A stretch of 64,000 nucleotides of DNA from Minisyncoccia bacterium. GTDB taxonomy: Bacteria; Patescibacteriota; Minisyncoccia; Phycocordibacterales; DATDWN01. Under the pieces are notes generated by a model. The model saw nothing but the letters and a program-made list of their open reading frames with translations, was not told where the DNA came from and made no database searches. Of this stretch, positions 2,574 to 61,582 are shown one piece after another. Position 1 is the first letter of the stretch, and each line of letters opens with the position of its first letter. The stretch is from NCBI GenBank assembly GCA_049297675.1, contig JBAQUS010000011.1:459-64458 (forward strand), in the 5' to 3' direction. A program made the position numbers and the translations under genes.

Positions 2574-5255
2574 TTATTTACTCCAACCGCGTATAACTTC
2601 TTGGAAGTTTCGGGGCTTCTGTTGTTGCTTCTCCCAATCTTCCTGCTTTATGTATAGCATTTCGTAAGTAGCGTTTTTCTGACTGGCGTTCACATCAACA
2701 CACCACTGTTCGAGACGCTTTATCTTTTCCACGTCGTCCAAGTCCTCACGGCCTTTCGTCTCCACAATGTAATACTCCTTTGGCGACACTTTTACAATAA
2801 AGTCGGGATAGTAGTCGGAGATATTCCCGTCGGCATTTTTATAGTCAATTTTGAAGTGAACCGCAAAGTAGTTTTTGACGTATGAAATTATGTCGTCGCA
2901 ACCCTCAAGAAAACTTGCGAACTCAAGTTCAAAATGACTATCGCCAATAATCTTATTGAAGATACTCTTTTTAGGAACGATATAACCCTGATCCTTCACT
3001 ACGAACGGACGGCTCTTGCTGATTTTTATATAGTCCCTGATTTCAGCTTCTCCCTTGTCCAATACAGTCAGAGTGTTTATCTCTTTTTTGAATGTCTCAA
3101 AAATTGTCCGCGAAGCCTCAATCTCTGACAAGTTGCGAAGTGAGTTTAAGTTATCAAGCTCAATACTCTTATCGAATAGTTGGTTTTGAATAAACTCCTT
3201 CACTTTTTCATAGAGAATATCATAACCGCTAACCAAGCGTAGCTCCTTCATAACACTTTGCGTGAAGTAGCCGACGACGCTTTGATAGTTCGGCACAAAA
3301 TTGCTATCCAGTTCTGTTTTATGAGTTATATCTCCGCTCGAAATATCGCGGAAAACAATCTCTCTTTTTTCTTCTTCGGAAAATTCTTTTAGTAGAATTT
3401 TCTTATGACCGAATTTTGCTACGTTAAGCTCCGAGAGATTTTTATATTCACGATATATTCTTGGCGTGAGAACGGGAATCTCAATATCCAGTTTCTCAAT
3501 GTCCTTTTTCATATTCTCCCGATCAACCTCAACGACAAGAGGGCTTTTTGGTCCTGAACCTTCACCCATTTTCTTGTGTTCAAGTTCAACGCCCTCGCTT
3601 TTGATGGACTCCACAAAGTCCATAAATGCGTCCGTGCCGACTACGCTAACAAGCTCCGGTAAGTTAGGGTCGCGATACATACGACGCAAGCCACGGCCAA
3701 GCGTTTGTTCGGGGAGAATGTTGCTTTGTGCGGTATAGGCACGCAAGCCGACAATCGTAGTAACATTCCGCACGTCCCAACCTTCTTTAAGCATAAGCAC
3801 CGAGACAATCGCTTTATGTGGACTCTCCAAACGATCTATCTCGTTCGCGGCCTTACGCAATATTTTCAATTCTTCTTCCTTCTTTCCGGTAACGCTCTCC
3901 GAAATATCTCCGTTGTCTTTGGTATGAATAACAAGCACCGCGTCCTTTAACTCCGAATATGTATTTTCGAGATACTTGGCGACTTCATCACAGTTCTTTG
4001 TATCGTCAGTCATAAGGAACAGCACGGCTTTTTTGTTGAGCTTGATATGCTCGTCATAAACCTTTTTCCACTCCAAATAACCGAGATGAATATAGTCCTT
4101 ATATTTTTCCGTGAAGTTAGAGCTTTTATGCTCCTGTAATTTCGCCCGACTCGCCAAATCGGGAAGGACGGGATGTTTTACCACATCTTGATGTATTGCT
4201 TCCACAAGCGGGTAATCGCTTGTCGTTTGAACAAAGATAGAGCCGTTGGTATGTTTCGGTGTAGCCGTAACGTCCACCTGTAAACTCAACTGATCGCCTT
4301 TCATTTTGAGGCGATTATGAATGTCCTCAATTGCTTTGAACCAAGCCATTCGCGGGTCGTGGATATGATGAGCTTCGTCGTTTAGCACAACCAGCTCATC
4401 TATATTACGGACAATATCGCCAAGATCGAGCTTCGATTCATTCGTCGCTCCGGCTGGCTTGTCGCCGAGAAAATAACTCGATGTATCTTGGTCTTCAAAA
4501 CTTGCCGATTCAATCGCTCCCTCATAGACGCGATGAATGTTCGTGAGAAAAATATTTCCAGTTTTTCTCACAGTTCCTATCTCGTCCTGAATATGAAGCG
4601 TTGCCTGAAAATCATCTCGCCAATTTTTCCCATCGTAGCCGTTGTCGGGAAGCACGGGGTCTTCAAAAAAGATTTTTAGTCCATCAAAATCAGCACGAAT
4701 ACGATCAAGGACAATAATGTTCGGCGTGATAACTAAGAAATTGCGAGCGAGTTTTGAATCTTCCTCATAGAGTTTGTGAAAGTAGCACCACGCTAAAATT
4801 AAACTCAATACTTTCGTTTTTCCTGAACCAGTCGCCATTTTTACGACATACCGCGTCCAGTCCTCATCAAACATTCCTGCTGAAATCGCTCCCGAACTGT
4901 CAAAACGAATCAGGTCATATTTGTCTCTCGCTTTAGCAACGTCGTAAAGCCAGACGATAGTTTCCACCGCTTCGCGTTGAGCGAAGTAATACTGAAATAA
5001 AAATACTTCTCCGTCCGATGTTTCCATCGGGTGATCTTTTAAGAACCACCAATTCAATAGGGCTTTACTTGTTTCGCTCGCTCCCTTATATCCCGTAAGC
5101 CGCCACTCTTTTACCTTCTTGCGAAGTTCCGCAACGAGCGGCGGGAGCAGTTTCTCATACCCCTTTTCCCGCAAATTCTCGTCAGCCGGAAACCAACGGA
5201 TTGCCGGATCGAGAATTTCATAAGGCGACTTGGGGAATTTTTGATGTAAAGCCAT
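2574..5255 (-). CDS. res: Type III restriction enzyme Res subunit (SF2 helicase with C-terminal PD-(D/E)xK nuclease)
   Basis: 893 aa. Helicase motif I MATGSGKTKV and DEAH-like LNDEAHHI. C-terminal PDFIVK..ETKG nuclease motif. Translationally coupled downstream of mod. Confidence 0.8.
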   Translation of the reverse strand: MALHQKFPKSPYEILDPAIRWFPADENLREKGYEKLLPPLVAELRKKVKEWRLTGYKGASETSKALLNWWFLKDHPMETSDGEVFLFQYYFAQREAVETIVWLYDVAKARDKYDLIRFDSSGAISAGMFDEDWTRYVVKMATGSGKTKVLSLILAWCYFHKLYEEDSKLARNFLVITPNIIVLDRIRADFDGLKIFFEDPVLPDNGYDGKNWRDDFQATLHIQDEIGTVRKTGNIFLTNIHRVYEGAIESASFEDQDTSSYFLGDKPAGATNESKLDLGDIVRNIDELVVLNDEAHHIHDPRMAWFKAIEDIHNRLKMKGDQLSLQVDVTATPKHTNGSIFVQTTSDYPLVEAIHQDVVKHPVLPDLASRAKLQEHKSSNFTEKYKDYIHLGYLEWKKVYDEHIKLNKKAVLFLMTDDTKNCDEVAKYLENTYSELKDAVLVIHTKDNGDISESVTGKKEEELKILRKAANEIDRLESPHKAIVSVLMLKEGWDVRNVTTIVGLRAYTAQSNILPEQTLGRGLRRMYRDPNLPELVSVVGTDAFMDFVESIKSEGVELEHKKMGEGSGPKSPLVVEVDRENMKKDIEKLDIEIPVLTPRIYREYKNLSELNVAKFGHKKILLKEFSEEEKREIVFRDISSGDITHKTELDSNFVPNYQSVVGYFTQSVMKELRLVSGYDILYEKVKEFIQNQLFDKSIELDNLNSLRNLSEIEASRTIFETFKKEINTLTVLDKGEAEIRDYIKISKSRPFVVKDQGYIVPKKSIFNKIIGDSHFELEFASFLEGCDDIISYVKNYFAVHFKIDYKNADGNISDYYPDFIVKVSPKEYYIVETKGREDLDDVEKIKRLEQWCVDVNASQKNATYEMLYIKQEDWEKQQQKPRNFQEVIRGWSK

Positions 5256-5259
5256 AAGT

Positions 5260-7356
5260 TTATACTGTTACCTCAATTACTTTCATCGTGTCGTTGCCGA
5301 ATATATCAACCACCTTCACAGCTACCTTGCGTTTGCCTGAATTGACCTCAACGGACGAGCTGATAAGTTCCAAGTCCCGTTTCTTTTTTGTGCGAAAGTC
5401 CTGCCACTCGTTCTCAAAGATATAATCGCCAGTCCAGCGTTCCTCGACTTCGCCCGTCTGCTCGTTCTTTACGCGGATAGTTTCTTTTTTGCTTTCGAAA
5501 TTGAAATCCACCGCCCAATAATCTATCCAGTCAGTCCACTTTTTCGTAAGAACTTCGCGACTCGTAACGCCGTCCTTGTCTTTGGCGATTTTGATAATTT
5601 GCCCGTTCTCAACCAAGAGCTTTTTACCACCCGCTTTCAGATTTTCTTCAACTTCCTTTATTGAGTCCTGATTGTAGAAAACTGAAAAATCGGTAAGCTC
5701 GATTGCGATAGTTTTTTTCTTCACAATCGGCTTAACCTCAATATACGAGACATCGTGGAAAACGACTTGATTCTTTTCTATCGCTCTCTTATCAAATACT
5801 TCGCGGGGAATGTATTTGAGAGCAAGATCAACCCCTTTGCTTTTCGCTTCTTCCTGAATTTTCGGGAACAATCCCATCTCAAATTCAAAGGCGAGAATAT
5901 CAACCTTTGTTATTTGCTTTTCAATACATTCGTTGATAACCGCCTCAACAAACAGACGCGAGGCAGGCAAATTGATAGGGCCTATGGAAACAAGACGAGA
6001 ACTTTTCTTGCCGTGAAATGTTTTGAATCCTGCCGTTGCTTCCGCCTTGTATGCGGAGAGTATCAAAGATACAAAATCTTTTTCCTTTTGGGCTATTTGC
6101 TTTACTTTTTCTTCTTCTCGTAAATTCGGATTTATACCTACATAATGTTGCCTCTCATACTTACCAAGATTGAGGATCTCAAACGCCCGATAATTTTTAT
6201 TATCTTTTTTCAATTGCCTTTGAACGTCTATCATTCTTTTGCGAGTAGTGTGTATTCCGAACTTTCCAAGGTCAGAGCCTATCCATTTTCTTCCTAATTT
6301 TTCTGCAACGGCAAGAGTCGTGCCAGAACCACAAAAAAAGTCAGCGACAATATTCCCCTCATTAGAAGAAGCTTTGATAATACGTTCCAATAAGGCTTCT
6401 GGCTTTTGAGTGTCATAACCAGTATCATCATTAGCCATTGAATTTAAACGCGGAATTTCCCACATGCTTCCAACTTTTCTTTCCTTAGATTCGTAATACA
6501 CGACTTTCCCACTTTCATCTTTCACAGTGACAGTTTTTCTTGCAACTGGATCCCATGTGATTTTATTTTGTTTTCTAGGTTTTTCTAGGGGGATAGATTG
6601 ATGGTAAAAAATATAATTTTTACTTTTTGAATACAATAATATACTCTCGGTGTCTCGTGGGAAATTGCGTGCGAATCCGAATTGCAGTTTATTACGATAG
6701 AACCAAGTTATTTGATTGACTAAATTTTCTTTTCCAAAAATCTCGTCAAGTAATAATTTAGTATAGGCATTAACATCGCCCCCGATATGCACATAAATGC
6801 TCCCGTCATCAGCAAGCAAATCTCTCATTAAAACTAACCTTTCATACATCATCGCAATCCAACTATCAGTTCCTTTACCCCAAGTGTCCCGATACGCAAG
6901 CTCCTCAAGCACGTTTGGTTTCTTAGTAAATTCCTCTCCACCAATTTCAATATTCATTGAAAAATCAGCGCCCACATCAAACGGAGGATCAATATAAATA
7001 AGTTTGATTCCTCCCTGTTCTTCAATCTCTTGTCGCAACGGCCCATTCTTTAAGGAAGAAAGAATTAGCTTGTTATCTCCCCAAATAAGTTTATTTGTCC
7101 AACCTGAAATCTGTCGGCCACCTTCTCCAAAAAGTAATCCTTGAACCTCTCTTGTTTTTTCAAAACGCGGCTCATCTACTTGCTCAATAACTTGAAACGG
7201 CAAAACCGTATTCGTTACCTCGCTTGTCTTTCCATTCCATACAAGCTCTACTTCTTGTTTCTCCTCAAATAATAAAAAACGATATTTGTCGGGCAAGGGT
7301 TTACCTGCCTCAATATATTTCTGAATATCTCTTTTTTCGTTGTCGCTTAGATACAT
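5260..7356 (-). CDS. mod: Type III Mod DNA methyltransferase (beta-class N6A/N4C MTase), long C-terminal extension
   Basis: 698 aa. Motif IV IYIDPPF precedes motif I FFCGSGTT, the beta-class order typical of Type III Mod. 4-nt gaps to the HTH gene upstream and res downstream. Confidence 0.75.
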
Positions 7357-7360
7357 AAAT

Positions 7361-7567
7361 TTATTTGATTAAGTCTTCAATCGGAACGCCAAGTGCTTTT
7401 GCGAGCCGTTCAATGTTTTTCAAAGCCATATTCCGCACACCCCGTTCAATACCGCTTATATAAGTCGAGTGAACGCCTAAAACTTTGGCGAGATCGGCTT
7501 GCGACATCTGTTTTTTGAGTCTAATTTCTCTAACTTTTTTTCCAAACTTGGCTGATATATCTGTCAT
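7361..7567 (-). CDS. XRE-family helix-turn-helix regulator, candidate controller (C) protein of the R-M operon
   Basis: 68 aa. Classic HTH_XRE sequence ([26 protein letters not shown]). First gene of the HTH-mod-res-PHP/ATPase operon. Confidence 0.7.
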
Positions 7568-7646
7568 AAAATCATATTACACCCCTTGCGTGCATTCTAT
7601 CAGATATTGTAATATAGTTCTATGTAGAATTATCATTCTACCCTAT
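7568..7646. promoter_or_regulatory. Divergent promoter/operator region between the HTH-mod-res operon and the recombinase gene
   Basis: 79-bp gap between divergent genes. Contains palindrome TAGAATtatcATTCTA (6-4-6) and other dyad symmetry (attcta..tagaat). Candidate C-protein operator. Confidence 0.3.
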
Positions 7647-9200
7647 ATGTCTAAATACTTTCTTTACGTCAGAAAAAGCACCGATGTTGAAGACAAACAA
7701 GTCCTCTCCATTGAAAGCCAACTCGCTGAATTGCGGGCACTCGCTAAACATGAGAATCTTTCCATCTCGGACGAGTTTATCGAAAAGCGTTCAGCAAAAA
7801 TGCCCGGTCGCCCGATCTTCAACGATATGCTCCGCCGCATACAGACGGGCGAAACACAGGGCATTATTTGTTGGAAAGTAGACCGCTTGGCTCGCAACCC
7901 CGTGGACGGCGGACAGATTCAATGGCTTCTTCAACAAGGCGTGATCCAACACATTCAAACACACGACCGAAGCCATTATCCAAACGATAATGTTTTGATG
8001 ATGTCCGTCGAGTTAGGTATGGCGAACGAATATATCCGACAACTAAGTGCGAACACCGCACGCGGGCTAAGGCAGAAAGCACGGCAGGGGGATTTCCCCG
8101 GCCTTGCCCCGCTTGGCTACATCAACAATTCCAACATCAAGAAAATTGCCGTCCATCGCAAAAATGCGAAACTCGTTAAGAAAATGTTTGAACTTTACGC
8201 AACGGGAAGTGTCCGTCTTGAAAATCTTTCCTTGGTTTTGGAACAGGCGGGTATCCAGTCCAAAAATAAAAATCGCGTTCATATCTCGCGAATATCAAAT
8301 ATTCTCTCTAACCCGATTTATTACGGACACTTCCGCCACGCAGGGGAAATATACGAGGGCAAGCACGAGCCGATAATCACTAAAGACCTCTTTGATAGGG
8401 CTAATGCCGTCTTGCGAGGCAGAGGCCGTACCCCCGACAAGAAAACCGACCCAAGGCCTTTTTGTGGCCTCCTGTCGTGTGGGAGTTGCGGTATGGGGAT
8501 AACGGGAGAGATAAAGATAAAGAGGCAGAAGAACGGCAACACCCATCGCTATGTTTATTACCATTGCACTAAGAAAAATAAGACGCAGAAATGCCCTGAA
8601 CCCTGTATCCGAGCGGAGGAGTTAGACCGCCAGTTGTCGGTCATGCTTACCGAATACACTATGCCGAAAGAATGGGTAGCCCCACTTTCCGCCATGCTCG
8701 ACAAAGAGGAACACGACACTAAAAATTCCGCGTCGGGGGCTGTTCAAGAAATGCGGGGGCAAGTCATAGACTTTTCCCGCAACCTCGCCCGACTTACCGA
8801 TGTCTATGTTGCACAAGACATAGAGCGAGATGACTACCTTGAGAGGCGTCGTTCGCTTATGTCCGAGAAGAAGTCCGTCGAGGAGCAAATAGCCCGTCTT
8901 GAACATACCCCCTCCGCGTGGATCGAACCGACCCGAGACTGGATTAAAGACGCTTCCATACTGGAAGAAGTAGCAAAAACAGACGACCTCCCCTCCAAAA
9001 AAATCTCCCTCCAAAAAATCTTCGGCTCGAACCTCACCTTAAAAAAACGCGGAGCGTTCGGAATTGCCCAAAACCATTGGCTTTCTTTGGCGAACGCCAA
9101 AGAAAAAATTTCTAAAAATGACCTTAGTTTAATTCTGGTGCGTCCAGCAGGAATCGAACCTGCGACCCTCTCCTTAAAAGGGAGTTGCTCTACCGACTGA
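7647..9200 (+). CDS. Large serine recombinase (resolvase/invertase N-domain, recombinase domain, zinc ribbon, coiled coil)
   Basis: Catalytic region YVRKSTDVEDKQ..SIESQ and DRLARN. Zinc ribbon CGLLSCGSCG..YYHC. The track ORF starts at 7485, but the N-extension overlaps the HTH gene and promoter; the first Met followed by the resolvase fold is at 7647. The last 21 codons are antisense to tRNA-Lys. Confidence 0.8.
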   Translation: MSKYFLYVRKSTDVEDKQVLSIESQLAELRALAKHENLSISDEFIEKRSAKMPGRPIFNDMLRRIQTGETQGIICWKVDRLARNPVDGGQIQWLLQQGVIQHIQTHDRSHYPNDNVLMMSVELGMANEYIRQLSANTARGLRQKARQGDFPGLAPLGYINNSNIKKIAVHRKNAKLVKKMFELYATGSVRLENLSLVLEQAGIQSKNKNRVHISRISNILSNPIYYGHFRHAGEIYEGKHEPIITKDLFDRANAVLRGRGRTPDKKTDPRPFCGLLSCGSCGMGITGEIKIKRQKNGNTHRYVYYHCTKKNKTQKCPEPCIRAEELDRQLSVMLTEYTMPKEWVAPLSAMLDKEEHDTKNSASGAVQEMRGQVIDFSRNLARLTDVYVAQDIERDDYLERRRSLMSEKKSVEEQIARLEHTPSAWIEPTRDWIKDASILEEVAKTDDLPSKKISLQKIFGSNLTLKKRGAFGIAQNHWLSLANAKEKISKNDLSLILVRPAGIEPATLSLKGSCSTD

Positions 9201-19261: not shown

Positions 19262-20261
19262 CTAGTTTTCGAGCCCGTTCATGAAGCCTGTGACGTACCA
19301 TGGCGGAGTCCATCCGCCAGTGGAACCATCTGTACCACCTACGCCGGTGTTGACACCCCCTCTACCTTTCGACGGACGAGACGGGAAAGGCAACCAATCG
19401 ATAGACTGGTCCTTTTGAGTATAGAAGTCATACCCGTAATTCGGGTAAATGGTGTAGGCAGGCGAGTACGCCAATCTCCCGCTCCGGCTTTTAGCAGTCA
19501 GTTTGACCTGCTTGGCTCCGTTGTAAAGCCAATCACGTGAGATTGAAATGGTTGCATCACCACCCGGACAGAAACTTGTGACAATCCACTTGCCATTTGT
19601 AGTGTGGACGTCAAAGATCTCCCCATCCATTGGGCTGTGGATGGTCAGGTAGACAGTTCGATCAATGTGTCGCATCCCAGAATTCGCATCCGGGTTGACG
19701 ATAGTCTTGCCGTCGAACTCAACCGGACATCGTAGATGCGCTGTACGAGCGGCATCGGCCTCTCGATTTGATCGTTTGATCACCGCATCGTGCTGTTTCT
19801 GGAGCTTGTTGCGAACCTTTCTCTCCTCGCTAGACGCCCCCTTGTAGAGCTCTGAGAGAATCTCGTTCTGCTCCTTCTTGAGGCTCTTCACCTCAGTATT
19901 AACCTCTACCCTAGCCTGATACAAACTAGGCTTTGGTTCGGTGGTCGTCAGAAGGTCTTCACTGAGCTTTTTGTCAAGCTCTCTCAAAGTCTTGAGACGC
20001 AACTCGATCTGCTCGAGCCTCGCCACCTCTGGAGATTTTCTCTCCGCAAGATGGTCCGGGATCGACCTTGTCTCGATTGGCTCGACCTCTTTCGAGACCG
20101 ACTGTGTAGAGATATTATCAACCTCCACCGTCAGCTCGTCAGCCGGAAGCCGAAGTTCAGGCTCGTCGACGACGATCGGCTTCTGCTGGCTCTGCGCCGA
20201 GGCAACCGACACGACAGTGAACGAAACGAAAATCATGAACGATTTCAAATAGCTGGCCATG
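19262..20261 (-). CDS. Secreted hypothetical protein (signal peptide, coiled-coil middle, beta-rich C-terminal domain); compositionally GC-rich
   Basis: Start moved to MASYLKSFMIFVSFTVVSVASA, which has a perfect AGGAGG Shine-Dalgarno 5 nt upstream (rc of 20262..20272). GC is clearly higher than in flanking genes. Confidence 0.55.
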
Positions 20262-20395
20262 CTGGCCTCCTTGTTAGATAGACCCCCATGGTCCGCTTTA
20301 ATTATACACCCAAATGTATCTTCTGTCAAGGTGTTAACAGTGGCTTAAAATAGGGCTATTTTTGAGCATTTTTCTATGATAAAATTAGGGGACTT

Positions 20396-38583: not shown

Positions 38584-39684
38584 TTATTTATTCATAGGCA
38601 TCACAAGATAAAGAAAGGAATTATCGTTAACACCTTTTATAACTAGAGGTTTATTAGTGTCTGAAAAGTACATTGTTATGCTTTCAGAATTAATAGACTG
38701 GAAACAGTCTATTATGTATTTATAGTTAAAGCTTATAGTTAGACTGTCTCCCTTTATAACAGAATCTATATTGTTTACATTTTCCCCTATATCCATGTTT
38801 TTTGTGGTTATTCTTAATTTCTTTTCTTTAGGTAAAATATTAAAAACAACTTGACTAAACTTATCAGAAAAAATATTTGATATTTTTAAACTTGAAATAA
38901 GATCTTGTTTAAGTAGTGTAACCTCAGTTTTTGGTTCTTTAGGAATAATTTGTTTGTAGTCAGGAAAAACCCCATCTATTATTCTTGAAGTTATATATAA
39001 ATCGTTATATGTGAATGATATTTGGTTTTCGTTAAGTGTAATATTTATATCCTCTTTTATATCATCTAGTACTCTTATTATTTCGGAAACATTTTTTTGA
39101 GGAATTAGAATCTGGCTAAAATCCTTGTGTTTTTTTATTGCTATTTTTTTTTCAGATAATCTAAATGAATCTGTGGCCACAAAAACAATATTCTCATCCT
39201 CTGATAAAACAAGGATACTCGATAAAACTGGTCTTATAGTTGAGATGGATGAGCTGTATACTACAGACTTAAAACCTTTTATTAGTAACTGAGTATTGAA
39301 TGAAAAAGATTTACCGTCGGAAATTTTTGGAATATTTGGAAAATCATCAATAAGAAACGTTTTGATAATAGACTCAGAATTTTTTGTTGATATTTTCAAA
39401 TTTCCTTTAACTTCCTCTAAATTTATATTTTTATCAGTGGTTGGATTAGATAAAAAATTATTTAGTATAGACCCAGAAACTGCTATCTTTCCTGGTTTAA
39501 TAACTTTTACTGGTATTGAAACTTCAATTCCTAGATCAAGATTTGTTGATTTTATTGTTAAAAGAGAATCATGAGCATCTAATAAAACACAACTAAGAAT
39601 AGGTAAGCTAACATTTTTGGTAGTTATTTTTTCCGCTTTAGATATCGCGTAAACCAATTTTTCTTTAACACATTCAATATTCAT
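38584..39684 (-). CDS. dnaN: DNA polymerase III beta sliding clamp
   Basis: 366 aa. N-terminal pattern typical of DnaN. Immediately downstream of dnaA. Confidence 0.8.
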   Translation of the reverse strand: MNIECVKEKLVYAISKAEKITTKNVSLPILSCVLLDAHDSLLTIKSTNLDLGIEVSIPVKVIKPGKIAVSGSILNNFLSNPTTDKNINLEEVKGNLKISTKNSESIIKTFLIDDFPNIPKISDGKSFSFNTQLLIKGFKSVVYSSSISTIRPVLSSILVLSEDENIVFVATDSFRLSEKKIAIKKHKDFSQILIPQKNVSEIIRVLDDIKEDINITLNENQISFTYNDLYITSRIIDGVFPDYKQIIPKEPKTEVTLLKQDLISSLKISNIFSDKFSQVVFNILPKEKKLRITTKNMDIGENVNNIDSVIKGDSLTISFNYKYIIDCFQSINSESITMYFSDTNKPLVIKGVNDNSFLYLVMPMNK

Positions 39685-39888: not shown

Positions 39889-41241
39889 TTAAATAAATAT
39901 AGAGCGCAGTTGATTTATTTCTTGTATTAAAACTTCATCCATTTTCATATCATTTTTTATTTTTTCACAAGAATGCATAACAGTTGTATGATCTCTTCCA
40001 CCCAGCCTTTCCCCAATTGCTGGGTATGAAATACTAAAATCTTCCCTTAAGATATACATAATTATTTGTCTTGGTTTTATAACTTCCTTTTTTCTTGTTT
40101 TATCGTAAATAAGTTGTTCTTCTATATTATAAAAATCCGCCACAGTTTTTACTACCTCTTTAGTCGAAACAAGTTTTTTTGGTTTGGTGTTATTTTTAAC
40201 AAAATTTTTAACTTCTGTTAAGGAAAGTTCTCTACCTTTAAGTTCAGATTGGCAAGTGATAGAGTTTATTATTCCTTCAAGTTCTCTTATATTTCCATTA
40301 ATTGAGTATGCTAGGTAATCCACAGTATCTTTTGTTAATGGATATAGGGCTTGTGCAGACTTATGCTTAATAATTGCTGCTCTAGATTCGTTATCTGGTG
40401 TAGGAATATCAACTATCATTCCCTGACTAAATCTGGATTTTAGTCTTTCCTCTAAATCCTGAATGAGCCCAGGATGTTTGTCTGAAGAAAATATTATTTG
40501 TTTGTTGTTTTCGTATAGATGGTTAAAAAGATGAAAAATTTCCTCTTGAATTTTCATTTTTCCTGAGAAAAATTGAATATCGTCCATTATGAGCACATCG
40601 TATTTTCTATACTTTTCCTTGAAAAAATTTGGCTTATTGGCTTGTATTGCATTCACATATTCTTGGCTAAACTTTTCCGAGGTAGTGTAAAAAACTTTTT
40701 TACTTCCTGTATTTTTAAGATAGTTTCCAACAGCTTGTATAAGATGTGTTTTTCCGTGACCCGTTCCACCATATATAAACAAAGGATTATAGACTATTCC
40801 CGGTTTTTTGATGACGGCCTGACTGGCTGCATAAGCGAACTCGTTAAATGGTCCGACTATAAATGATTCAAACGTGTATCTTGGATTAAGATTATCTTCT
40901 TTGTTTATATATGTGTCAGCAATAGGGAGCTCACGAGTTGCTTGGGGTATGGATTTTTGGGTTTCCTGTCTTTCTTTCATCTCTTCCTTACTGATTACAT
41001 AATGAAGAGATTGGACATTACCAGATATATTTCTGAGAGTCTTAAGAATAAGGTTGTGAAACTTGCTACCCAACCAGTCTTGGACAAATGTGTTTGGTAC
41101 CCCAAGATAAACAGCTCCATTTTCTTGTCTAATAATCACTGTGTCTTTAAACCAGGTGTTGAAATTAGGTTTAGATAGACTCAATTCCATTTCCACTAAT
41201 ACACCGTCCCAGAGTTTTTTGTTATCCAACATGGGATACAT
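39889..41241 (-). CDS. dnaA: Chromosomal replication initiator DnaA
   Basis: AAA+ Walker A GGTGHGKTHL. C-terminal DNA-binding helix (HTTVMHSCEKI). Confidence 0.9.
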   Translation of the reverse strand: MYPMLDNKKLWDGVLVEMELSLSKPNFNTWFKDTVIIRQENGAVYLGVPNTFVQDWLGSKFHNLILKTLRNISGNVQSLHYVISKEEMKERQETQKSIPQATRELPIADTYINKEDNLNPRYTFESFIVGPFNEFAYAASQAVIKKPGIVYNPLFIYGGTGHGKTHLIQAVGNYLKNTGSKKVFYTTSEKFSQEYVNAIQANKPNFFKEKYRKYDVLIMDDIQFFSGKMKIQEEIFHLFNHLYENNKQIIFSSDKHPGLIQDLEERLKSRFSQGMIVDIPTPDNESRAAIIKHKSAQALYPLTKDTVDYLAYSINGNIRELEGIINSITCQSELKGRELSLTEVKNFVKNNTKPKKLVSTKEVVKTVADFYNIEEQLIYDKTRKKEVIKPRQIIMYILREDFSISYPAIGERLGGRDHTTVMHSCEKIKNDMKMDEVLIQEINQLRSIFI

Positions 41242-44124: not shown

Positions 44125-45039
44125 TTACCAAGTTACATGCCAATGTTCACCGCTTGAGTGAGTATAAGCCCCTGCTCTCTCGAATGTCGCAGTTGCGCCT
44201 GTAGGTAATCTGACAGTAAGTTTGTTGGTAGGATTACTAGCCTTAGGTTCAATAGTAGCAAGATATGATCTAAATGCTGCTGTGTTACCCAAATCAACTA
44301 TATTAGCTCCAGGACCGTGGTCCAAATGACCACCTTCTGCTCCACCTGTTATGGTAATCAAACAGTCTTGCTTTATTTTATTTAAGCATGTCTGACTTAT
44401 CGATTTAAGTGATGTAACCACATTTGGAGGCAATCCAATGACATTGGTACAACCTCGAGTTGATCCTGTATCACAAGGTCCAGCATTAACATAAACCCTA
44501 CCAGGTGAAGTGGCAAGTGCATCTCTTATGGTGTTATTTATTGCTACCTGCTCTGGGGTCAAAGAATATCCCGCTAAAGTCCCATCTGGATTGCGAGCTC
44601 CAGTGTATGTGCCTGCCGCTCCCACCACTACACCAGCCGGTGGAGTGGCAGTTGGTGGTCTTTTCATAACCAAATCAATTGCAAGTATACCTGGGTCAAT
44701 TGTGTAAAGAATAGCATAAGCGCCAATAACCAGAAGTAAACCTACCACTGCGTTTGTTAAGTATTCTCTACCTTGCTGTTTTTGGGTTATAGCGTCAGCT
44801 GTAGCGTACATTATTCCTCCAAAGGTAATCATGACAAAGGCCAAGACAGCAGAGGCCCCAATAGCTAGTCTGAACGCTGCAGGAATATAAGTAGTAAGAG
44901 TAGTTTGTTGTGCACCGATTCCTGGTAATGATGGGACTAAGAGTTGGTAAGGCTGTGCTTGAGCGTGAGTCAATGTGGCTAAAGAGAACAAAAATATTGA
45001 TAGAGCCAAAAATTTTGTAAATTTGTTTTTCATATTCAT
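44125..45039 (-). CDS. Signal-peptide protein with VirB2/TrbC pilin-like hydrophobic core and a C-terminal extra domain; GC-rich
   Basis: Signal peptide, then two hydrophobic helices (AAFRLAIGASAVLAFVMITFGGIMYATADAI .. AVVGLLLVIGAYAILY). Assignment by architecture only. Confidence 0.35.
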   Translation of the reverse strand: MNMKNKFTKFLALSIFLFSLATLTHAQAQPYQLLVPSLPGIGAQQTTLTTYIPAAFRLAIGASAVLAFVMITFGGIMYATADAITQKQQGREYLTNAVVGLLLVIGAYAILYTIDPGILAIDLVMKRPPTATPPAGVVVGAAGTYTGARNPDGTLAGYSLTPEQVAINNTIRDALATSPGRVYVNAGPCDTGSTRGCTNVIGLPPNVVTSLKSISQTCLNKIKQDCLITITGGAEGGHLDHGPGANIVDLGNTAAFRSYLATIEPKASNPTNKLTVRLPTGATATFERAGAYTHSSGEHWHVTW

Positions 45040-46714: not shown

Positions 46715-49700
46715 CTACCCATTCCTCTCCAGCTCCTCCTTTTTACTTTTGATTGCCAATATTTCCGATGGGTCGGATGTAATAATCTGCTCCTCTGTGT
46801 ATGAAGCGATTATTTTTATTGCCACATGCTTTAGTCCAGCGAAGAATATTCCCTCACCGACGTCTGACTCTAAAAGTAGATATTTTTCCTCATCTGTAAG
46901 GTTAAAGGTTTGCTGGAGTTTGTCCATAGAGGTTGGAGATTGCTTCAAAAGGACTTGTATGGAAGAGTTTGTAATAATCGGTACTCCATAAGGGGATTTC
47001 ATAAAATCGTCTACGTCTTGGGTTATTGTCGCCAGTCCCAAATAATATTTTCTGCCTCTTTTAGCAAGGGAGAGTAGAAAAGATGCTGTGTCCTCGGACT
47101 TCATCATCCACCAAGCCTCGTCTATAACTAGAAGTCTTTTCTTCAGCTTCTTTCTTATCATGTTCCAGATATAGTGCATGACAATATACATGGCGATGGG
47201 TTTCAATTCATCTTCCATGTCGCGAACGGAGAAGACAATGAACTTTTTGTTTATATCCACATTTGACGGCTTGTTTATAAAGCCAGCCCAGGTTCCGCGG
47301 GTGTATTTTGTAAGTCTTTGAGCAAGGGAATCCCCCCCTTCCATACCAGAGAGAACCAGCTCAAAGTCCGACATAAGTGGTGGTTCTATATTTTGAAAAT
47401 CCGAGTCTGGAGTAATGTCCTTTAGAGCATAGGTTTCTGTTATAGCTCTATCTATAATAGCGTCTTCCTCGGGAGTTATTCCCCCCATCATGATTCTGAA
47501 AAGCCCGACTAGGTTTATAATGTTTGACCTAAGTACGTTAGCAAAAGATTCTCCCTCTCCCGGCTGAGGAAGTTCAAAAGGATTTATGTGGTGTTCAGAG
47601 TTTAGAGAAATATTAAAGTATCTGCCTCCAACGGCTTCTGATAAATATTCGTATTCTTTTTCTGGGTCTATGACTATTACATCAACATCAAACATCAGAG
47701 TTCTAAGTATCTCTAGTTTAGTCATAAAGGAGTTATGAACAAACATACCTGAAGTTCCAGCAAGGAAAATTTCATTATCTACAGTTAAATCATAAACATA
47801 TTTTTCTGCATTGTTATTACGTTTTTCTATTGAGATAATAGGATCCCACATAAGGTCTGACTGAGCAAGTCTTCTAAGCATTTTTAGAATTCCTTCTATA
47901 TGAGGTAAATTAGCATATATGTTTCTATATGTTTCGCTTATAAATTTTGCCGAATCCAAAACCATTTCATAAGATGTTCTGTCGGGTAATTTTTTTCGAA
48001 AAGCACTACCCAATCCAGGATTTTGATCTATAATAGAACTGTCAAAATCTAAAAAGCTCTGGTGTATGCGTTTTGTAGCAACTAAAATTTCATTTCCGGT
48101 TTCTGTACCCAAGACTACTCGAGAAAGAATAATAATATTAGCAAGTCCAGGTTTTCCTTTACGTTTTTTCATCCAAGCCCAGCTTGATCCGAGCTCACTG
48201 TAGAGTCTATTATTAAACTCCTTGTTCGATTCACCTAAGTTTATGAGAGTTTCTATTTCAGGTAGTTCTGACATTAGTTTCATCGTCTTTTCTATTTTTT
48301 TAAAACGATTTATCCTTTCTTCCACACTTACCACAAGTTTGTAAAGCTCTTCTCTTCCTGGATTATACACCCCATGAGAGAGAGCAGAAAGATTTGGTAT
48401 GTTGTGCAGTTGACTATCAAAATAGACACGAAGTTCATTAATAAGCGACGCGACTGAAGGGATAATATCAACATTTGTATTATTTTGTTTGTCACATATT
48501 GACTTGAGGGCTTCCTGTTTTTGTGGTGTTGCAAAGCCTATCTTATCTCTAAAGATGGTGAGATTTTCTTGGCCAGATATACTAATTATCCAAAACAATC
48601 TTTTGCCACCAGTCTTTTTATATGTGATGGTTTTTTTGTGTAAACGAGCAACAATGCCAAAACCAAGCAACAGATAAGAAATTTCCGAAAGCAAATTTTT
48701 TGATTTTGATGTTGCAGTTACTCGTGAAGCATCAACACCCCCGTCTCCTTCAAAGTAAGCTCGAATATAAGCAGATATAACTTCCTTAGGAGAACCAAAG
48801 AGTATCTCCGGAACATGTTTTTTTGCTGATCTTCCACTGGCACCGATTGCATATATTAAGGCTACGAAAGGTCGATCGCTGATCACTATATCTTTTGGTG
48901 CTGGATAACAGAGTACACCTAAATTTTTACAAGCTTTTTGCACCACTGATCTTACTTTCTCATCAATATTACTTACTTGTATAGCATTTTGGTTTATGCA
49001 ACCTTCAGCACCAATATAACCCAGAAGTGTTCCGAAATCTTCATTAACTCTAAAAGTTGCGGGCAAACTTCCTCTGCCAGAACCAGACATGATTTTAAGA
49101 GAAGCAGATTCTCTTTCGGTTAGTTTTTTATCATATTTTTTCATCAGGGCATTAAAGAATTCTAGAGGAATTCGACGCCCCTTTTTATATAGAGGCAAAT
49201 AATGGTCATATCTAGGATTTATTGTTTCTCTTGAATATGCCTTGTGAACACTATTAACAATATTAGCTCCACCCACTACGTACATACGTTTTTGGTTTTT
49301 TAGAAGGTCAAAAAGATTAAGTTTTATCTGTGTATTTTGCGAAAAAGAAACTTCACGAGGTAATGGAATATATTCTCCATTTTTAACTTCAGTACTTTTT
49401 AAAACAACAACCTTTCCATCTCTTAAAACAAGCATATTATGGTCACCAGTTGTTGTTATCTCACGACCACTTTGAGTTTGAAAACGGTAAAAAGTATTCG
49501 GAGCTTGTTTGCGTGCCGCAATAGTGACTTTACTCCACGAACCTTTAAGTTCACTATCAAAACTCCAAACTTCAAATCCTGGATCAATAGTCCCCTCCAT
49601 TTCTTTATCAATTTTGACCTTACCCTTCTCCTTAATTGTTTTTTCTATCAAACTGCCAATTTGTTTAAATTCAATCTGGCCATTTTTTCTAATAATGACA

Positions 49701-50515
49701 GGTTCGATACCTCTCACACTTTTACCGGCACCTGATTTAGCAAAGGTAATTGAGTTGTAGTTTTCTAGAGAAAATCTATCAAAGAGAATTAATGATGAGT
49801 TGTGTCTGTTTATTCCATAAAGAATTCCCTTATCAGATGTTAGGTCAAAAGAGATGAAAGGAAATAGACTGGATAGAGGTGAAGAATTTAGTTTACTATA
49901 AACCTTCAAATCATCTGTGCCGAGTGGAATGGTTGTTTTGAATCCCTGTTCTTGTTGGAAAAGAGCTGGTTTTACGTAAACTAATTTTGCTTCAAGAATT
50001 GATTTTATTTCTGACTCAACCTTATCTAGTTCACCATCGGAGTCGGCATAGATGGTCAAATATAGTCCGACATCAAAAAGTCTCTCCTGGGCTTGCTGGA
50101 GCTGATCTCTCAAGTTTTCGAGGTCTTGATAGGCTGTGTCTAGCATCGGGTTTCTAACCAAACCTTTGGCTTCTCTCGTGTTTATCTGACTCTGGACTTC
50201 AGCAACTTTTTTTTGGAAAGTACGGAGGACTTGGGAGGTTTCGATGGGTTGAATAAATATACCAACATCAAAGACTTTGTCTAGATTTATTATGGGAGCG
50301 AACCAACTTTCTGAAAGATATCTTGGGTAAGAAATAACAAAGAAAGATCTAACAACTTTCTCGCCCAAGTTAATTCCCTTTGGGGTGACCTTAAGAGCAC
50401 TAGGGGCAATGACATCTTTCAGTTCCAAAGAGCCAGAATCATATATCTGGTGCGGTAAAATGGTCGCAACATGTGTCTCTTCTTTTTTTCCCTTCAAAAA
50501 GTCAAATATTCCCAT
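46715..50515 (-). CDS. VirB4/TraC-like conjugative (T4SS) ATPase, C-terminal two-thirds, interrupted by an intein
   Basis: Extein: ..ITFAKSGAGK|[intein]|SFMTKLEIL.. reconstitutes P-loop SGAGKSF. Walker B LLVIDEAWWMM. 265-aa N-extein + 663-aa intein + 338-aa C-extein. Confidence 0.75.
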   Translation of the reverse strand: MGIFDFLKGKKEETHVATILPHQIYDSGSLELKDVIAPSALKVTPKGINLGEKVVRSFFVISYPRYLSESWFAPIINLDKVFDVGIFIQPIETSQVLRTFQKKVAEVQSQINTREAKGLVRNPMLDTAYQDLENLRDQLQQAQERLFDVGLYLTIYADSDGELDKVESEIKSILEAKLVYVKPALFQQEQGFKTTIPLGTDDLKVYSKLNSSPLSSLFPFISFDLTSDKGILYGINRHNSSLILFDRFSLENYNSITFAKSGAGKSVRGIEPVIIRKNGQIEFKQIGSLIEKTIKEKGKVKIDKEMEGTIDPGFEVWSFDSELKGSWSKVTIAARKQAPNTFYRFQTQSGREITTTGDHNMLVLRDGKVVVLKSTEVKNGEYIPLPREVSFSQNTQIKLNLFDLLKNQKRMYVVGGANIVNSVHKAYSRETINPRYDHYLPLYKKGRRIPLEFFNALMKKYDKKLTERESASLKIMSGSGRGSLPATFRVNEDFGTLLGYIGAEGCINQNAIQVSNIDEKVRSVVQKACKNLGVLCYPAPKDIVISDRPFVALIYAIGASGRSAKKHVPEILFGSPKEVISAYIRAYFEGDGGVDASRVTATSKSKNLLSEISYLLLGFGIVARLHKKTITYKKTGGKRLFWIISISGQENLTIFRDKIGFATPQKQEALKSICDKQNNTNVDIIPSVASLINELRVYFDSQLHNIPNLSALSHGVYNPGREELYKLVVSVEERINRFKKIEKTMKLMSELPEIETLINLGESNKEFNNRLYSELGSSWAWMKKRKGKPGLANIIILSRVVLGTETGNEILVATKRIHQSFLDFDSSIIDQNPGLGSAFRKKLPDRTSYEMVLDSAKFISETYRNIYANLPHIEGILKMLRRLAQSDLMWDPIISIEKRNNNAEKYVYDLTVDNEIFLAGTSGMFVHNSFMTKLEILRTLMFDVDVIVIDPEKEYEYLSEAVGGRYFNISLNSEHHINPFELPQPGEGESFANVLRSNIINLVGLFRIMMGGITPEEDAIIDRAITETYALKDITPDSDFQNIEPPLMSDFELVLSGMEGGDSLAQRLTKYTRGTWAGFINKPSNVDINKKFIVFSVRDMEDELKPIAMYIVMHYIWNMIRKKLKKRLLVIDEAWWMMKSEDTASFLLSLAKRGRKYYLGLATITQDVDDFMKSPYGVPIITNSSIQVLLKQSPTSMDKLQQTFNLTDEEKYLLLESDVGEGIFFAGLKHVAIKIIASYTEEQIITSDPSEILAIKSKKEELERNG
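47732..49720 (-). mobile_element. Intein (663 aa) with LAGLIDADG homing endonuclease, inserted in the Walker A P-loop
   Basis: Starts with Ser (SVRGIEPVII). Block B TTTGDHNMLV. LAGLIDADG-like LLGYIGAEGC and YIRAYFEGDGGV. Ends ..MFVHN followed by the +1 Ser. Confidence 0.7.
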
Positions 50516-50519
50516 AGTT

Positions 50520-51158
50520 TTAATTCATTTTTATTGGTTTTTCCGTGTCGCCTGGATTAAATATTTTATAAAACAGCTCTATGACCTCTTCCTCACCTAG
50601 CCTGACCACTCTTATTCCGCATCGGGATAGTCCTTGTTCTACCACCGAAACTCTCTGTTCAAGCTGTGTTCGATTTTCTTCAAAACTTACTTTCTTCTCC
50701 TCAGCCACCTGACTAGCAGATCTTCTTCCCAAAAGTCTTCCAGCAACCCCGCCTTTAATATCTATTATAGCAGGATCATAAGGCACAACCACGAAGAAAC
50801 TTTTTGTCATGATGTTTGTCGATTCGGTAAATTTTTTAACAAACTCTATATATTCCCTTGTTTGAATTTTCATTAAATCGTTAACTTGTTCCTTGTACCT
50901 GTCCTCCAAGAGGGCCAAGTACGGTCTTATATCCAGCCTTCTGGATTGAATAGAAATTTGAATTGCAAAATCCAACGAGTTTAAAAAATCTTGAAATTGC
51001 AAAATTATTGCGTTTCTTTCATCATCAGATTTTAGACTGAAGTTTAAAGAGGAAGTTAAAACAACAGCGCGCAAAGTACCATCTTTAAGCACTACTATTC
51101 CGTCACGGACTTCTCTTATTGGAACAAATTCTTGAGTTGCATTTGAAGCGACAACCAT
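50520..51158 (-). CDS. Probable N-terminal domain of the split VirB4-like ATPase (212 aa)
   Basis: Pattern IREVRDGIVVLKDGTLRAVVLTSSLNFSL resembles the VirB4 N-terminus. 212 + 265 aa places Walker A at about residue 477, as in intact VirB4. The stop is 4 nt before the ATG of the downstream ORF. Confidence 0.4.
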   Translation of the reverse strand: MVVASNATQEFVPIREVRDGIVVLKDGTLRAVVLTSSLNFSLKSDDERNAIILQFQDFLNSLDFAIQISIQSRRLDIRPYLALLEDRYKEQVNDLMKIQTREYIEFVKKFTESTNIMTKSFFVVVPYDPAIIDIKGGVAGRLLGRRSASQVAEEKKVSFEENRTQLEQRVSVVEQGLSRCGIRVVRLGEEEVIELFYKIFNPGDTEKPIKMN

Positions 51159-51255: not shown

Positions 51256-51690
51256 CTATCTTGTTGTCTTTCCGTCCTCCCCTGTCAGCGGATTTAAATT
51301 TTCATTTATGTCCAATGTCCACGAAAGTTCCTTTAGTTTGCTTTCTGAAAGTTTTGGAACAAAAACTTGTCTAGCTGAAGTTTCCGGAGTTTCTGACTCT
51401 ACTATTTTTTTGTCTTCCCTTTTCCAGATATAAAGATTTTGTTTTGTATAGTAGAGAAATGCTGATTCCAAAAAATCTATGAATGGTTTGTTGTTTATTT
51501 TATAAAATGCAAGAGCAACGGATAGCCCAGCAACTGCTCCTATAGGAAATATGGCTATATAAAAAGGCAGATATCTATAAAGTATAAAAGACATAAAAGC
51601 TCCACCGGCAATATAAACAAACTGTTTTATAGTGAATGGCCCAATTATTTTGTCTTCTATTTCTATAAATTGAGGAACTTGGTATTTCAT
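51256..51690 (-). CDS. Small 2-TM membrane protein, VirB3-like by size, topology and position upstream of VirB4
   Basis: 144 aa. Two hydrophobic helices (IAGGAFMSFILYRYLPFYIAIFPIGAVAGLSVALAFY). Confidence 0.4.
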   Translation of the reverse strand: MKYQVPQFIEIEDKIIGPFTIKQFVYIAGGAFMSFILYRYLPFYIAIFPIGAVAGLSVALAFYKINNKPFIDFLESAFLYYTKQNLYIWKREDKKIVESETPETSARQVFVPKLSESKLKELSWTLDINENLNPLTGEDGKTTR

Positions 51691-60074: not shown

Positions 60075-60755
60075 CTACTTACTGTTTATATTATACCCCA
60101 CGATTTCAAGGCTAGTTTTATTATTCTGGGTTGTCCAAAACAAATAATCAGGAGTTATTATCCAGGGTATTTCTTTATTAGAGACAAGCTCTATTTTTGT
60201 TAGTTGTTTAAGTATTACGTCAGAACAGGAGGCGTTTTTTCTCTTTTCATCAAATGGACCAAATACATAATCTGGGTCATCAGCAATTTTTCTAAGATTG
60301 GACTTAATCTCACCAAATCTTTCATTGTAATTTTTTGGCCTTATCACTACAAAATTTTTCATATCCTCATCCATCCAATCACTTTCTGAAAGCTTAGAAA
60401 TCTGGATTTGATCTTTTGGTTCTAGGTGGTCTCCGAGTGCTTCGAAAAGTTCATCGTTACCCAGATATATTGCTGAATGGGTAAAATATGGATTAAGAGT
60501 TTTGCTAAACAAGTCTGAAACATTTGTTACGTATCTGCGAATAAGAATGTCTCCCGGTAGAAGCTCGCATTCAGAAAATTTTCTACATCCAGTACCGTTT
60601 TCAGAGTTATTTTCAAGTAGATAGGTGTTTATTTGCTCATAAGAAAGTCTAAAGACACTTTTATAAAATACATAACCGCTAAAAACTATAATACTAAGGC
60701 AAAATATTATAAACAGTATAACCACAATTAGAATTCTTTTTAGCCATTTTCTCAT
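60075..60755 (-). CDS. Membrane-anchored putative permuted papain-like (YiiX/NlpC-P60-like) hydrolase
   Basis: GDILIRR..THSAIYLG resembles the YiiX family signature. Weak. Confidence 0.3.
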   Translation of the reverse strand: MRKWLKRILIVVILFIIFCLSIIVFSGYVFYKSVFRLSYEQINTYLLENNSENGTGCRKFSECELLPGDILIRRYVTNVSDLFSKTLNPYFTHSAIYLGNDELFEALGDHLEPKDQIQISKLSESDWMDEDMKNFVVIRPKNYNERFGEIKSNLRKIADDPDYVFGPFDEKRKNASCSDVILKQLTKIELVSNKEIPWIITPDYLFWTTQNNKTSLEIVGYNINSK

Positions 60756-61582
60756 TATTCTATATTTTTACACAATTCTGTCCAAACTTCGAGAGGTAAA
60801 TCCTCTGCTCTTATCTTCATGGGTATTTTCAATGCTTCAAAAGCTTTTAATATTTTCTTCCTATCATATTTCTGACAAAGGTTTGAAAAAAGTTGCTTTC
60901 TCTTATGAGCAAACCCAGCATGTATCAAATCAAAAAACCTCTCTTTCCCATTTCCCAAAGGTCGGACCTTTGGGAAATGATTTACTATGTTGGATATATG
61001 CAATATTGCCGAATCGACCTTTGGTTGAGGCGCAAAAAAGGCCTTACTGACAGTCTTTACATAATTAGGTTTACCGTAAATTTTAACGGAAAGTGAAAGC
61101 AGGCTCTCCTTTTTGTCTTTTGCTACTATTCTCTCCGCTACTTCCTTTTGAACCAGAAGAGTCATTGATTCGGGTTTATTCTCCGCCTCTAAAAATTTTC
61201 TCAGAATCTGTCCAGTTATATAGTAAGGAATATTAGCCACCACCTTGTACCCTCTACCTATGCCAAGGGGCACCCTTGGCATACTGGTGTCAAAGACGAT
61301 CTTTGACAGATCAAAATTCAAGATATCTCCGTAAATTAGAGCTAATTTATTATCTTTAATTTCAGTATTAAATTTTTCAGTCAGTACTGGTATTAATCTA
61401 CTATCTTTTTCAACAGCTACAACTTTTTTTACCGTTTTGAGAAGTTCTCTTGTTAGTATTCCTTCTCCAGGACCAATCTCCAAAACTACATCTTTGAAAT
61501 CAGTTTTGCTAGCCCCAACTATATCCTCAGCTATTTTTTGAGAATTCAGAAAGTTTTGTCCTAAGGATTTTTTATGCTCCAT
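60755..61582 (-). CDS. rsmA: 16S rRNA (adenine1518/1519-N6)-dimethyltransferase
   Basis: N-terminus MEHKKSLGQNFL. SAM motif VLEIGPGEGILT. Confidence 0.85.
   Translation of the reverse strand: MEHKKSLGQNFLNSQKIAEDIVGASKTDFKDVVLEIGPGEGILTRELLKTVKKVVAVEKDSRLIPVLTEKFNTEIKDNKLALIYGDILNFDLSKIVFDTSMPRVPLGIGRGYKVVANIPYYITGQILRKFLEAENKPESMTLLVQKEVAERIVAKDKKESLLSLSVKIYGKPNYVKTVSKAFFAPQPKVDSAILHISNIVNHFPKVRPLGNGKERFFDLIHAGFAHKRKQLFSNLCQKYDRKKILKAFEALKIPMKIRAEDLPLEVWTELCKNIE

Follow-up and report, generated by a model that had tools for sequence, protein, structure and literature searches.

What is a 663-aa segment doing inside the ATP-binding loop of a secretion ATPase? The question is raised by a VirB4-like gene in a 64,000-nucleotide stretch of DNA from a Minisyncoccia bacterium of the Patescibacteriota (assembly GCA_049297675.1, contig JBAQUS010000011.1, positions 459 to 64,458; hereafter the window, in whose own numbering all positions are given). 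A preliminary description of the window had read the segment as an intein with a LAGLIDADG homing endonuclease, placed it in the Walker A P-loop of a VirB4-like ATPase of a conjugative type IV secretion system (T4SS), and regarded such an intein as unusual. With high confidence, we conclude that residues 266-928 of this VirB4 are a canonical class-1 intein with a nested LAGLIDADG homing endonuclease in Walker A, and from its sequence we infer splicing, DNA cleavage, homing and a dependence of the T4SS on splicing.

A Walker A loop split by a 663-aa insert

The precursor gene for the VirB4-like T4SS ATPase plus intein, taken from the list of open reading frames (ORFs), lies at 46715..50515 on the minus strand and encodes 1266 aa plus a stop codon; this single protein is matched by the Pfam families P-loop_TraG, AAA_10, Intein_splicing and LAGLIDADG_3. 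Within it, the insert (47732..49720, minus strand, 663 aa) occupies residues 266-928, starting with SVRGIEP at 266 and ending with MFVHN at 928, so that in intein numbering it runs from Ser1 to His662-Asn663. It splits the host between GAGK and SFMTK, that is, between Lys and Ser of Walker A (GAGK↓S, where arrows mark junctions). The N-extein (49721..50515, minus strand, aa 1-265) ends in FAKSGAGK, the first part of Walker A, and the C-extein (46715..47731, minus strand, 338 aa plus stop) starts with SFMTKLEIL, whose Ser is residue +1, and contains the Walker B region LLVIDEAW as well as the P-loop_TraG and AAA_10 matches. Removal of the insert in silico yields a 603-aa protein with the junction FAKSGAGK↓SFMTKLEIL, in which the GAGKSF P-loop is restored. 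The spliced protein matches NF045971 ("VirB4-like conjugal transfer ATPase, CD1110 family") at 369.9 bits (cut-off 325) in one continuous stretch, residues 29-568 aligning to model positions 184-732, whereas the precursor gives two separated stretches. The preliminary description was thus accurate to the base in the length and junctions of the insert and in the size of the spliced product, and its claims that excision restores GAGKSF and that the insert interrupts Walker A of a VirB4-family ATPase are borne out by the family match after splicing and by the presence of both Walker A and Walker B.

Orthologues without the insert are abundant. When the spliced sequence was searched against 5.8 billion proteins, the best 120 matches, which come from metagenome-assembled genomes (MAGs) of Parcubacteria, Paceibacteria and Zambryskibacteria, were all 600-625 aa long, i.e. 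without the intein, and the top match (P0001) was 96% identical. The alignment between the spliced window gene and the virB4 gene on the contig that encodes P0001 (L001) runs through the junction with no gap, at 83% nucleotide identity, and the uninterrupted P-loop-coding site of L001 reads GCTAAATCCGGAGCTGGTAAG↓TCATACGCCACCAAACTTGAA. The N-extein is 95% identical to residues 1-265 of this orthologue and the C-extein 97% identical to its remainder, and codon differences between the two genes comprise 258 synonymous and only 22 non-synonymous changes. The gapless alignment and this imbalance argue that the host gene is under strong purifying selection and that the insertion is precise at the DNA level. 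Intein-less alleles, against which the preliminary description supposed the endonuclease to act, are thus present in relatives at the very same site.

Identity and architecture of the intein

Profile searches were run on the insert alone and judged by the curated Pfam and TIGR cut-offs. Four intein or endonuclease profiles exceed them: Intein_splicing (PF14890, 77.6 bits, cut-off 35.8), LAGLIDADG_3 (PF14528, 80.8 bits in two stretches, cut-off 22.5), intein_Nterm (TIGR01445, 42.8 bits at aa 6-98, cut-off 24.5) and intein_Cterm (TIGR01443, 21.7 bits at aa 641-663, cut-off 15.6). The insert also matches the intein portions of models for archaeal intein-containing RNA polymerase A'', RFC, IF-2 and PolII, and taken as profile scores these matches are far beyond chance. 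All residues of class-1 splicing are present in the window intein (Ser1, Thr91-Gly-Asp-His94, Asp644, His662-Asn663 and Ser+1), as are both catalytic acids of the endonuclease (Glu239 and Asp326). The preliminary description had named degenerate catalytic residues, together with absent splicing activity, as the mark of a decayed insertion; the splicing residues and endonuclease acids are intact.

Structure comparisons agree with the profiles. A sequence search of the PDB returned the intein PI-PkoII as the best match (2cw7, E 4.6e-21), followed by the TFIIB and CDC21 mini-inteins and VMA inteins. An AlphaFold2 model of the intein, built from a 12-sequence alignment (A1), has a mean predicted local distance difference test score (pLDDT) of 86.7 and a predicted template modeling score (pTM) of 0.82, and a Foldseek search with this model again placed PI-PkoII first (2cw7, E 3.2e-26, TM 0.70), with further matches to the TliVMA intein, PI-PfuI, PI-SceI, I-DmoI, I-Tsp061I and the mini-inteins of TFIIB, CDC21 and RadA.

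Five regions can be distinguished along the intein, all on the minus strand. The N-terminal splicing (Hint) region (49358..49720, aa 1-121) carries block A with Ser1 and block B with Thr91-Gly-Asp-His94, is covered by TIGR01445, and is beta-rich in the model, as is the C-terminal splicing region (47732..47860, aa 621-663), which holds block F (YVYDLTV, with Asp644) and block G (GMFVHN) and is matched by TIGR01443. Between block B and the endonuclease lies a variable linker or accessory region (49046..49357, aa 122-225) of mixed alpha/beta structure in the model, which has the lowest occupancy in a 76-sequence alignment (0.68-0.85) and is missing from shorter homologues; by its position, and by analogy with PI-PfuI and PI-SceI, it may take part in DNA recognition. 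The LAGLIDADG homing endonuclease domain (48476..49045, aa 226-415) contains the motifs LLGYIGAEG (232-240) and IRAYFEGDG (319-327) and is matched by PF14528 in two stretches, and it is this domain that resembles I-DmoI and I-Tsp061I in Foldseek. It is followed by an all-helical accessory domain of ~200 aa (47861..48475, aa 416-620), at whose start stand the conserved motif NTNVDIIP and what is left of an Xre-type helix-turn-helix (HTH). Profiles, model and structure matches together identify the insert as a class-1 intein with a nested two-motif LAGLIDADG endonuclease domain, for which splicing and cleavage are predicted; the preliminary description, which had pointed to blocks A and B, two LAGLIDADG motifs and the terminal HN, was right on each.

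By the canonical class-1 route, translation would give a 1266-aa precursor with a broken ATP-binding loop; Ser1 would undergo an N-O acyl shift, Ser+1 of the C-extein would attack, and Asn663 would cyclize with help from His662 and from Thr91 and His94 of block B. Ligation of the exteins would then produce a 603-aa VirB4 with an intact GAGKSF and release a free 663-aa intein. The released intein, or the precursor itself, might cut an intein-less virB4 allele at its P-loop-coding sequence, and repair of the cut would copy the intein in. Since the intein lies in the Walker A loop, the T4SS machine of these lineages would be unable to bind ATP before splicing. Intact catalytic residues and the purifying selection described below suggest that the ATPase indeed depends on splicing and that the endonuclease is active.

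The same evidence bears on the reading that the insert belongs natively to a separate, longer family of ATPases, or else is a decayed insertion that does not splice and inactivates the gene. Its size, and the 200 aa without a family assignment, would allow either version; yet orthologues 96% identical lack exactly this segment, intein profiles score over their cut-offs, the fold is that of Hint plus LAGLIDADG, the splicing residues are intact in the window, the homologues that were read contain no stop codons, and 258 synonymous against 22 non-synonymous differences would be unexpected in a dead gene. We regard this reading as extremely improbable, and a native domain in particular was rejected on account of the exact intein-less orthologues and the restoration of the family model on excision.

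Recurrence at the same site across Patescibacteria

The window intein has many relatives in the same host protein. A protein search with the intein retrieved ~25 VirB4-family proteins from Taylor-, Harrison-, Portnoy-, Yanofsky-, Andersen- and Pacebacteria, with inteins 36-61% identical to that of the window and the same junctions, G(S/A/G)GK↓S(I/V/L)xxxEPVLI at the N-terminal side and (M/L)FVHN↓S(Y/F) at the C-terminal side. A scan with alignment A1 across one genome per GTDB species found 319 relatives, of which the best 80 loci were read. In these 80, the intein is flanked by VirB4 extein wherever the contig extends far enough (on both sides in 74; on one side in 6 that are cut off by a contig end), with extein identity to the window from ~30% to 91%, and the carriers of the same-site intein are nearly all Patescibacteria. 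Both junctions are readable in 75 of the loci: the intein ORF is uninterrupted in all 75, and 74 have the canonical GxGK↓S...HN↓S site. A library of representatives at 50% identity contained 117 clusters at E <= 1e-30 and 1557 at E <= 1e-10. Outside cellular chromosomes, a tblastn search of 72,556 plasmids gave 2 weak, unrelated matches only, and viral sequences in IMG/VR gave distant matches only, at <=35% identity, mostly to the endonuclease domain and none across the whole intein.

The exception to the canonical site is L080:2308-5820, from a Candidatus Gottesmanbacteria MAG, where the intein lies five residues upstream of the usual position (VVFGK↓SVASWEPVLV...GGMFVHN↓SGGGKSYFVKLE) in an uninterrupted ORF. 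Its insertion point is the first of two GK↓S dipeptide contexts in the P-loop, and it could represent ectopic homing to a look-alike site.

Conservation was tallied over 75 sequences, namely the readable loci without L080 plus the window's own intein. Ten positions are invariant in all 75 (Thr91, Asp93, His94, Lys339, Ser340, Val642, Tyr643, Asp644, His662 and Asn663), Glu239 is kept in 72 and Asp326 in 74, and Ser+1 follows the intein in 74 of the 74 canonical-site homologues. At position 1, 71 sequences have Ser, 2 have Thr and 2 have Cys. Thr occupies this position in L032, L034 and P0132, the last of which also has a degenerate first LAGLIDADG motif (AKS, not AEG), and Cys does so in L076 and L078. 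Thr1 is an unusual N-terminal nucleophile, and the Thr1 and Cys1 homologues may be impaired or mechanistically different.

Selection, mobility and the state of the endonuclease

Because synonymous divergence (dS) is saturated (pS above 0.65), no dN/dS ratio was calculated and only the proportions of non-synonymous (pN) and synonymous (pS) differences were compared. Against the inteins of its closest relatives L003 and L005 (65-67% identity), the window intein has pN 0.10-0.26 and pS 0.61-0.84 in all five regions, including the endonuclease domain (pN 0.19-0.25, pS 0.66-0.74) and the helical domain (pN 0.26, pS 0.63-0.73). The extein has a pN of 0.10, so non-synonymous change is less suppressed in the intein than in the extein. 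These values indicate purifying selection on every intein domain.

The distribution of the intein is sporadic: the 120 nearest orthologues lack it, and L003-L005, with 85-89% extein identity, carry it. Overall, the more similar a relative's extein is to that of the window, the more similar its intein tends to be (Spearman 0.73), with one clear incongruence, in that the L004 extein is 89% identical but its intein only 50%, whereas L003 and L005 have exteins at ~85% and inteins at ~66%; the inteins of the window, L003 and L005 share 66-69%. Partial endonuclease-deletion derivatives also exist, at 467 aa (P0130), 483 aa (P0131) and 391 aa (P0143). A homing cycle of invasion, fixation, decay and loss predicts just such a sporadic distribution, incongruence and deletion derivatives.

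The deletion derivatives show that decay does occur in this intein family, and they lend weight to a reading in which the intein has kept its splicing while its endonuclease has lost homing activity, the element having become fixed, being inherited vertically, and being kept since imprecise loss would destroy an important gene. Vertical descent would predict the correlation between extein and intein identities, and many LAGLIDADG inteins with intact motifs are reported to be inactive (PMC8966425). However, both catalytic acids and Lys339 are kept in at least 72 of the 75 sequences, the gap between pN and pS in the endonuclease domain is unlike neutral decay, and the intein-less state of the closest orthologues, together with the L004 incongruence, fits ongoing gain and loss. 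An inert endonuclease is therefore unlikely in our view, if well short of far-fetched.

Several points count against the view of the insert as a canonical intein with a homing endonuclease and should be stated together. No experimental evidence of splicing or DNA cleavage was found for the window intein or any homologue, and conserved endonuclease acids are no proof of present nuclease activity. The intein is long (663 aa) and includes an uncharacterized helical domain of ~200 aa. Its block A, SVRGIEPVII, deviates from the commonest pattern, C-[LVF]-x-x-D-T, yet agrees with the whole clade and with the Ser1 archaeal Pol inteins related to PI-PkoII. Finally, GC content at third codon positions (GC3) is 0.23 in the intein and 0.39 in the extein, but this difference is only weak evidence of foreign origin since it lies within the gene-to-gene spread of the window (0.19-0.61, mean 0.32, sd 0.07). 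Composition was accordingly dropped as proof of foreign origin and is suggestive at most.

The helical domain and its archaeal relatives

Residues 416-620 gave no match to a known fold and no family assignment, and the best clue to their origin comes from more distant inteins. Related inteins, 26-39% identical, occur in HerA/DUF87 proteins of DPANN-type archaea (P0139, P0140, P0147-P0152; Micrarchaeota/Nanoarchaeota-type) and in UvrB (P0146, P0156), likewise inserted at the P-loop GK↓S/T. In the archaeal HerA and UvrB relatives, at 26-37% identity, the shared NTNVDIIP motif is followed by 77-92 aa that include an Xre-type HTH (PF01381, ~77 aa) in intact form, and at the HTH position the window clade has a degenerate remnant plus ~150 extra helical residues. 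In a profile-profile comparison, the helical domain aligns over its first 58 residues to the HTH segment (probability 97%, E 2.8e-11), with gaps at the HTH core. The most economical reading of these sequences is that the helical domain would be a DNA-recognition accessory module, remodeled and enlarged in the VirB4 clade.

Alternatively, the intein might have been co-opted as a conditional switch, in which an environmental or host-contact signal would control splicing, and with it T4SS ATPase activity, while the helical domain serves as sensor or regulator. Conditional splicing is documented for the P-loop/ATPase-domain inteins of RadA and DnaB (PMC4513877, PMC6195587), the helical domain is conserved in the clade under purifying selection while lacking a known fold match, and the T4SS is reported to be essential for epibiotic growth in Saccharimonadia (PMC12102498). 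Most close orthologues, however, work without the intein, which argues against an obligatory regulatory role. In addition, the N-terminal portion of the helical domain goes back to a DNA-binding HTH in related inteins, which favors target recognition over sensing, and the Ser1/Ser+1 chemistry lacks the redox-sensitive cysteines of known switches. A regulatory role of this kind thus appears improbable.

Two archaeal-labeled MAG contigs, both short (L048 and L052), carry a related intein, and the L048 intein (36%) is at least as similar to that of the window as its extein is (28-36%). This hints at intein exchange between bacteria of the candidate phyla radiation (CPR) and archaea, the labels of such short contigs being provisional. 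A broader proposal would combine the two ideas: more than a selfish element, the intein with its clade-specific helical domain would gate maturation of the T4SS ATPase by conditional splicing and so tie assembly of the epibiosis-linked secretion machine to a cellular or host-contact signal, and its lineage would have moved between CPR bacteria and DPANN-type archaea by way of a shared VirB4/HerA P-loop target. We think it improbable that both hold together.

A probably chromosomal T4SS cluster near the presumed replication origin

The host gene belongs to a T4SS cluster whose synteny recurs in L001 and L002. Directly upstream of virB4 lies an ORF resembling the N-terminal domain of TraC/VirB4 (50520..51158, minus strand, 212 aa), with a weak match to TraC_F_IV, below cut-off; its L001 orthologue, in the same synteny, is PF26593 (TraC-like). 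The first ~180 positions of the CD1110 model seem to be encoded by this separate ORF, and likewise in L001 (5359-5997). Further along are a PrgI/VirB3-like small membrane protein (51256..51690, minus strand; PF12666, 32.9 bits, cut-off 27), a 617-aa ORF (51773-53626, minus strand) that is Q/N/P-rich and of low complexity, and a 793-aa ORF (53639-56020, minus strand) whose N-terminal half is polytopic and whose C-terminal half is charged and coiled-coil-like. Neither of the last two has a Pfam match, both are conserved in L001, and the 793-aa product may be a VirB6-like component. The order in L001 is the same, with a 788-aa membrane protein, a 612-aa protein, PrgI, the TraC-like 212-aa ORF and VirB4. 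On the other side of virB4, a candidate T4SS pilin-like protein (44125..45039, minus strand) matches PF18895 (T4SS_pilin) at 24.5 bits, slightly under the cut-off of 26.6, and the syntenic L002 protein gives the same match.

The chromosomal neighbors dnaN (38584..39684), dnaA (39889..41241) and ksgA (60755..61582) flank the cluster, which makes it probable that the window covers the region of the replication origin; genes further out are polA, lepA, murJ, a gene for a penicillin-binding protein, and uvrD. No match to a relaxase or type IV coupling protein family was found among the ORFs scanned around virB4, which are part of the window's ORFs. Patescibacterial T4SSs have been described as lying near oriC and lacking a relaxase, and are argued to be probably not conjugative (Quinonero-Coronel et al. 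2025, PMC12102498). The location looks like the chromosome, and the window's T4SS, from a Paceibacteria/Zambryskibacteria-like genome, is probably of this chromosomal, oriC-proximal, relaxase-less type. A conjugative role is doubtful given a chromosomal cluster beside dnaA, dnaN and ksgA, and the word "conjugative" in the preliminary description is probably wrong.

Elsewhere in the window, the large ORFs that were scanned contained no other intein. A type III restriction-modification pair (Res at 2574..5255, Mod at 5260..7356) adjoins a large serine recombinase (7485..9200), with GC3 of 0.38-0.52 across these genes against the window mean of 0.32, and the segment 2574-9200 is probably an integrated mobile element. 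A 355-aa ORF at 19262-20329 (minus strand) has by far the highest GC3 of the window (0.61; GC 0.52) and no Pfam match, and may be of foreign origin or may not be a genuine gene.

Comparison with known systems

As the preliminary description stated, P-loops are a documented hot spot for inteins (Novikova et al. 2016, PMC4760082). The same survey lists 5 inteins in VirB4 (COG3451) of Firmicutes and Proteobacteria, plus 21 in VirB11 of archaea, so a VirB4 intein is rare but not unprecedented. The term "unusual" thus holds for the literature and fails for Patescibacteria, where the same intein occupies the same site in at least 74 species-level genomes. No paper on inteins in CPR/Patescibacteria T4SSs was found in the literature, a survey of 2,474 patescibacterial VirB4 homologues (PMC12102498) contains no occurrence of "intein", "LAGLIDADG" or "homing", and database labels of the homologous intein proteins are only "hypothetical protein", "intein/homing endonuclease" or "LAGLIDADG family homing endonuclease". 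The window intein belongs to an unannotated, widespread family that is specific to the chromosomal T4SS ATPase of Patescibacteria and, for this system, seems undescribed.

The kind of intein is well known, its mechanism is textbook, and our understanding of how inteins work is unchanged; what deserves attention is that the intein occupies this host system and recurs throughout the phylum, together with its Ser1/Ser+1 chemistry and uncharacterized helical domain. The T4SS, with VirB4 as its signature ATPase, is near-universal in Patescibacteria (PMC12102498), and its intein-bearing virB4 genes are double the normal length, "hypothetical" in databases and unmentioned in the main T4SS survey. As tools, these are Ser1/Ser+1 inteins from mesophilic uncultured bacteria, and the target of the LAGLIDADG enzyme would be both defined and highly conserved. 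For evolutionary studies, the intein family could mark gene flow among CPR lineages.

Among known systems, the closest structural counterpart is PI-PkoII (PI-TkoII), intein-2 of the Thermococcus kodakarensis DNA polymerase (2cw7), which shares with the window intein the Hint domain, a nested LAGLIDADG endonuclease with two motifs and additional parts for DNA recognition, in an alignment that spans blocks A and B, the second LAGLIDADG motif and blocks F and G. Identity over the structural alignment is 16%, and the two differ in host, an archaeal family B DNA polymerase in contrast to a P-loop ATPase, and in size, since PI-PkoII has 537 aa and lacks the 200-aa helical domain (416-620). By insertion site, the window intein resembles the ATPase P-loop inteins (DnaB-b, MCM-a, RFC-a, VMA, RadA/RecA; PMC4760082), which also interrupt Walker A and take their +1 Ser/Thr nucleophile from GK[ST]. 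The VirB4 inteins of that survey come from Firmicutes and Proteobacteria with no mention of Patescibacteria, unlike that of the window. The secretion system itself matches the chromosomal, MPF_FATA-like T4SS of Patescibacteria (PMC12102498) in its CD1110/MPF_FATA VirB4, its PrgI/VirB3 and pilin-like genes and its position near dnaA, dnaN and ksgA. Homologous to the window intein are the patescibacterial VirB4 inteins (for example P0122-P0129 and L003-L081), which are 36-67% identical to that of the window and share both its GxGK↓S...HN↓S site and its domain order, including the helical domain.

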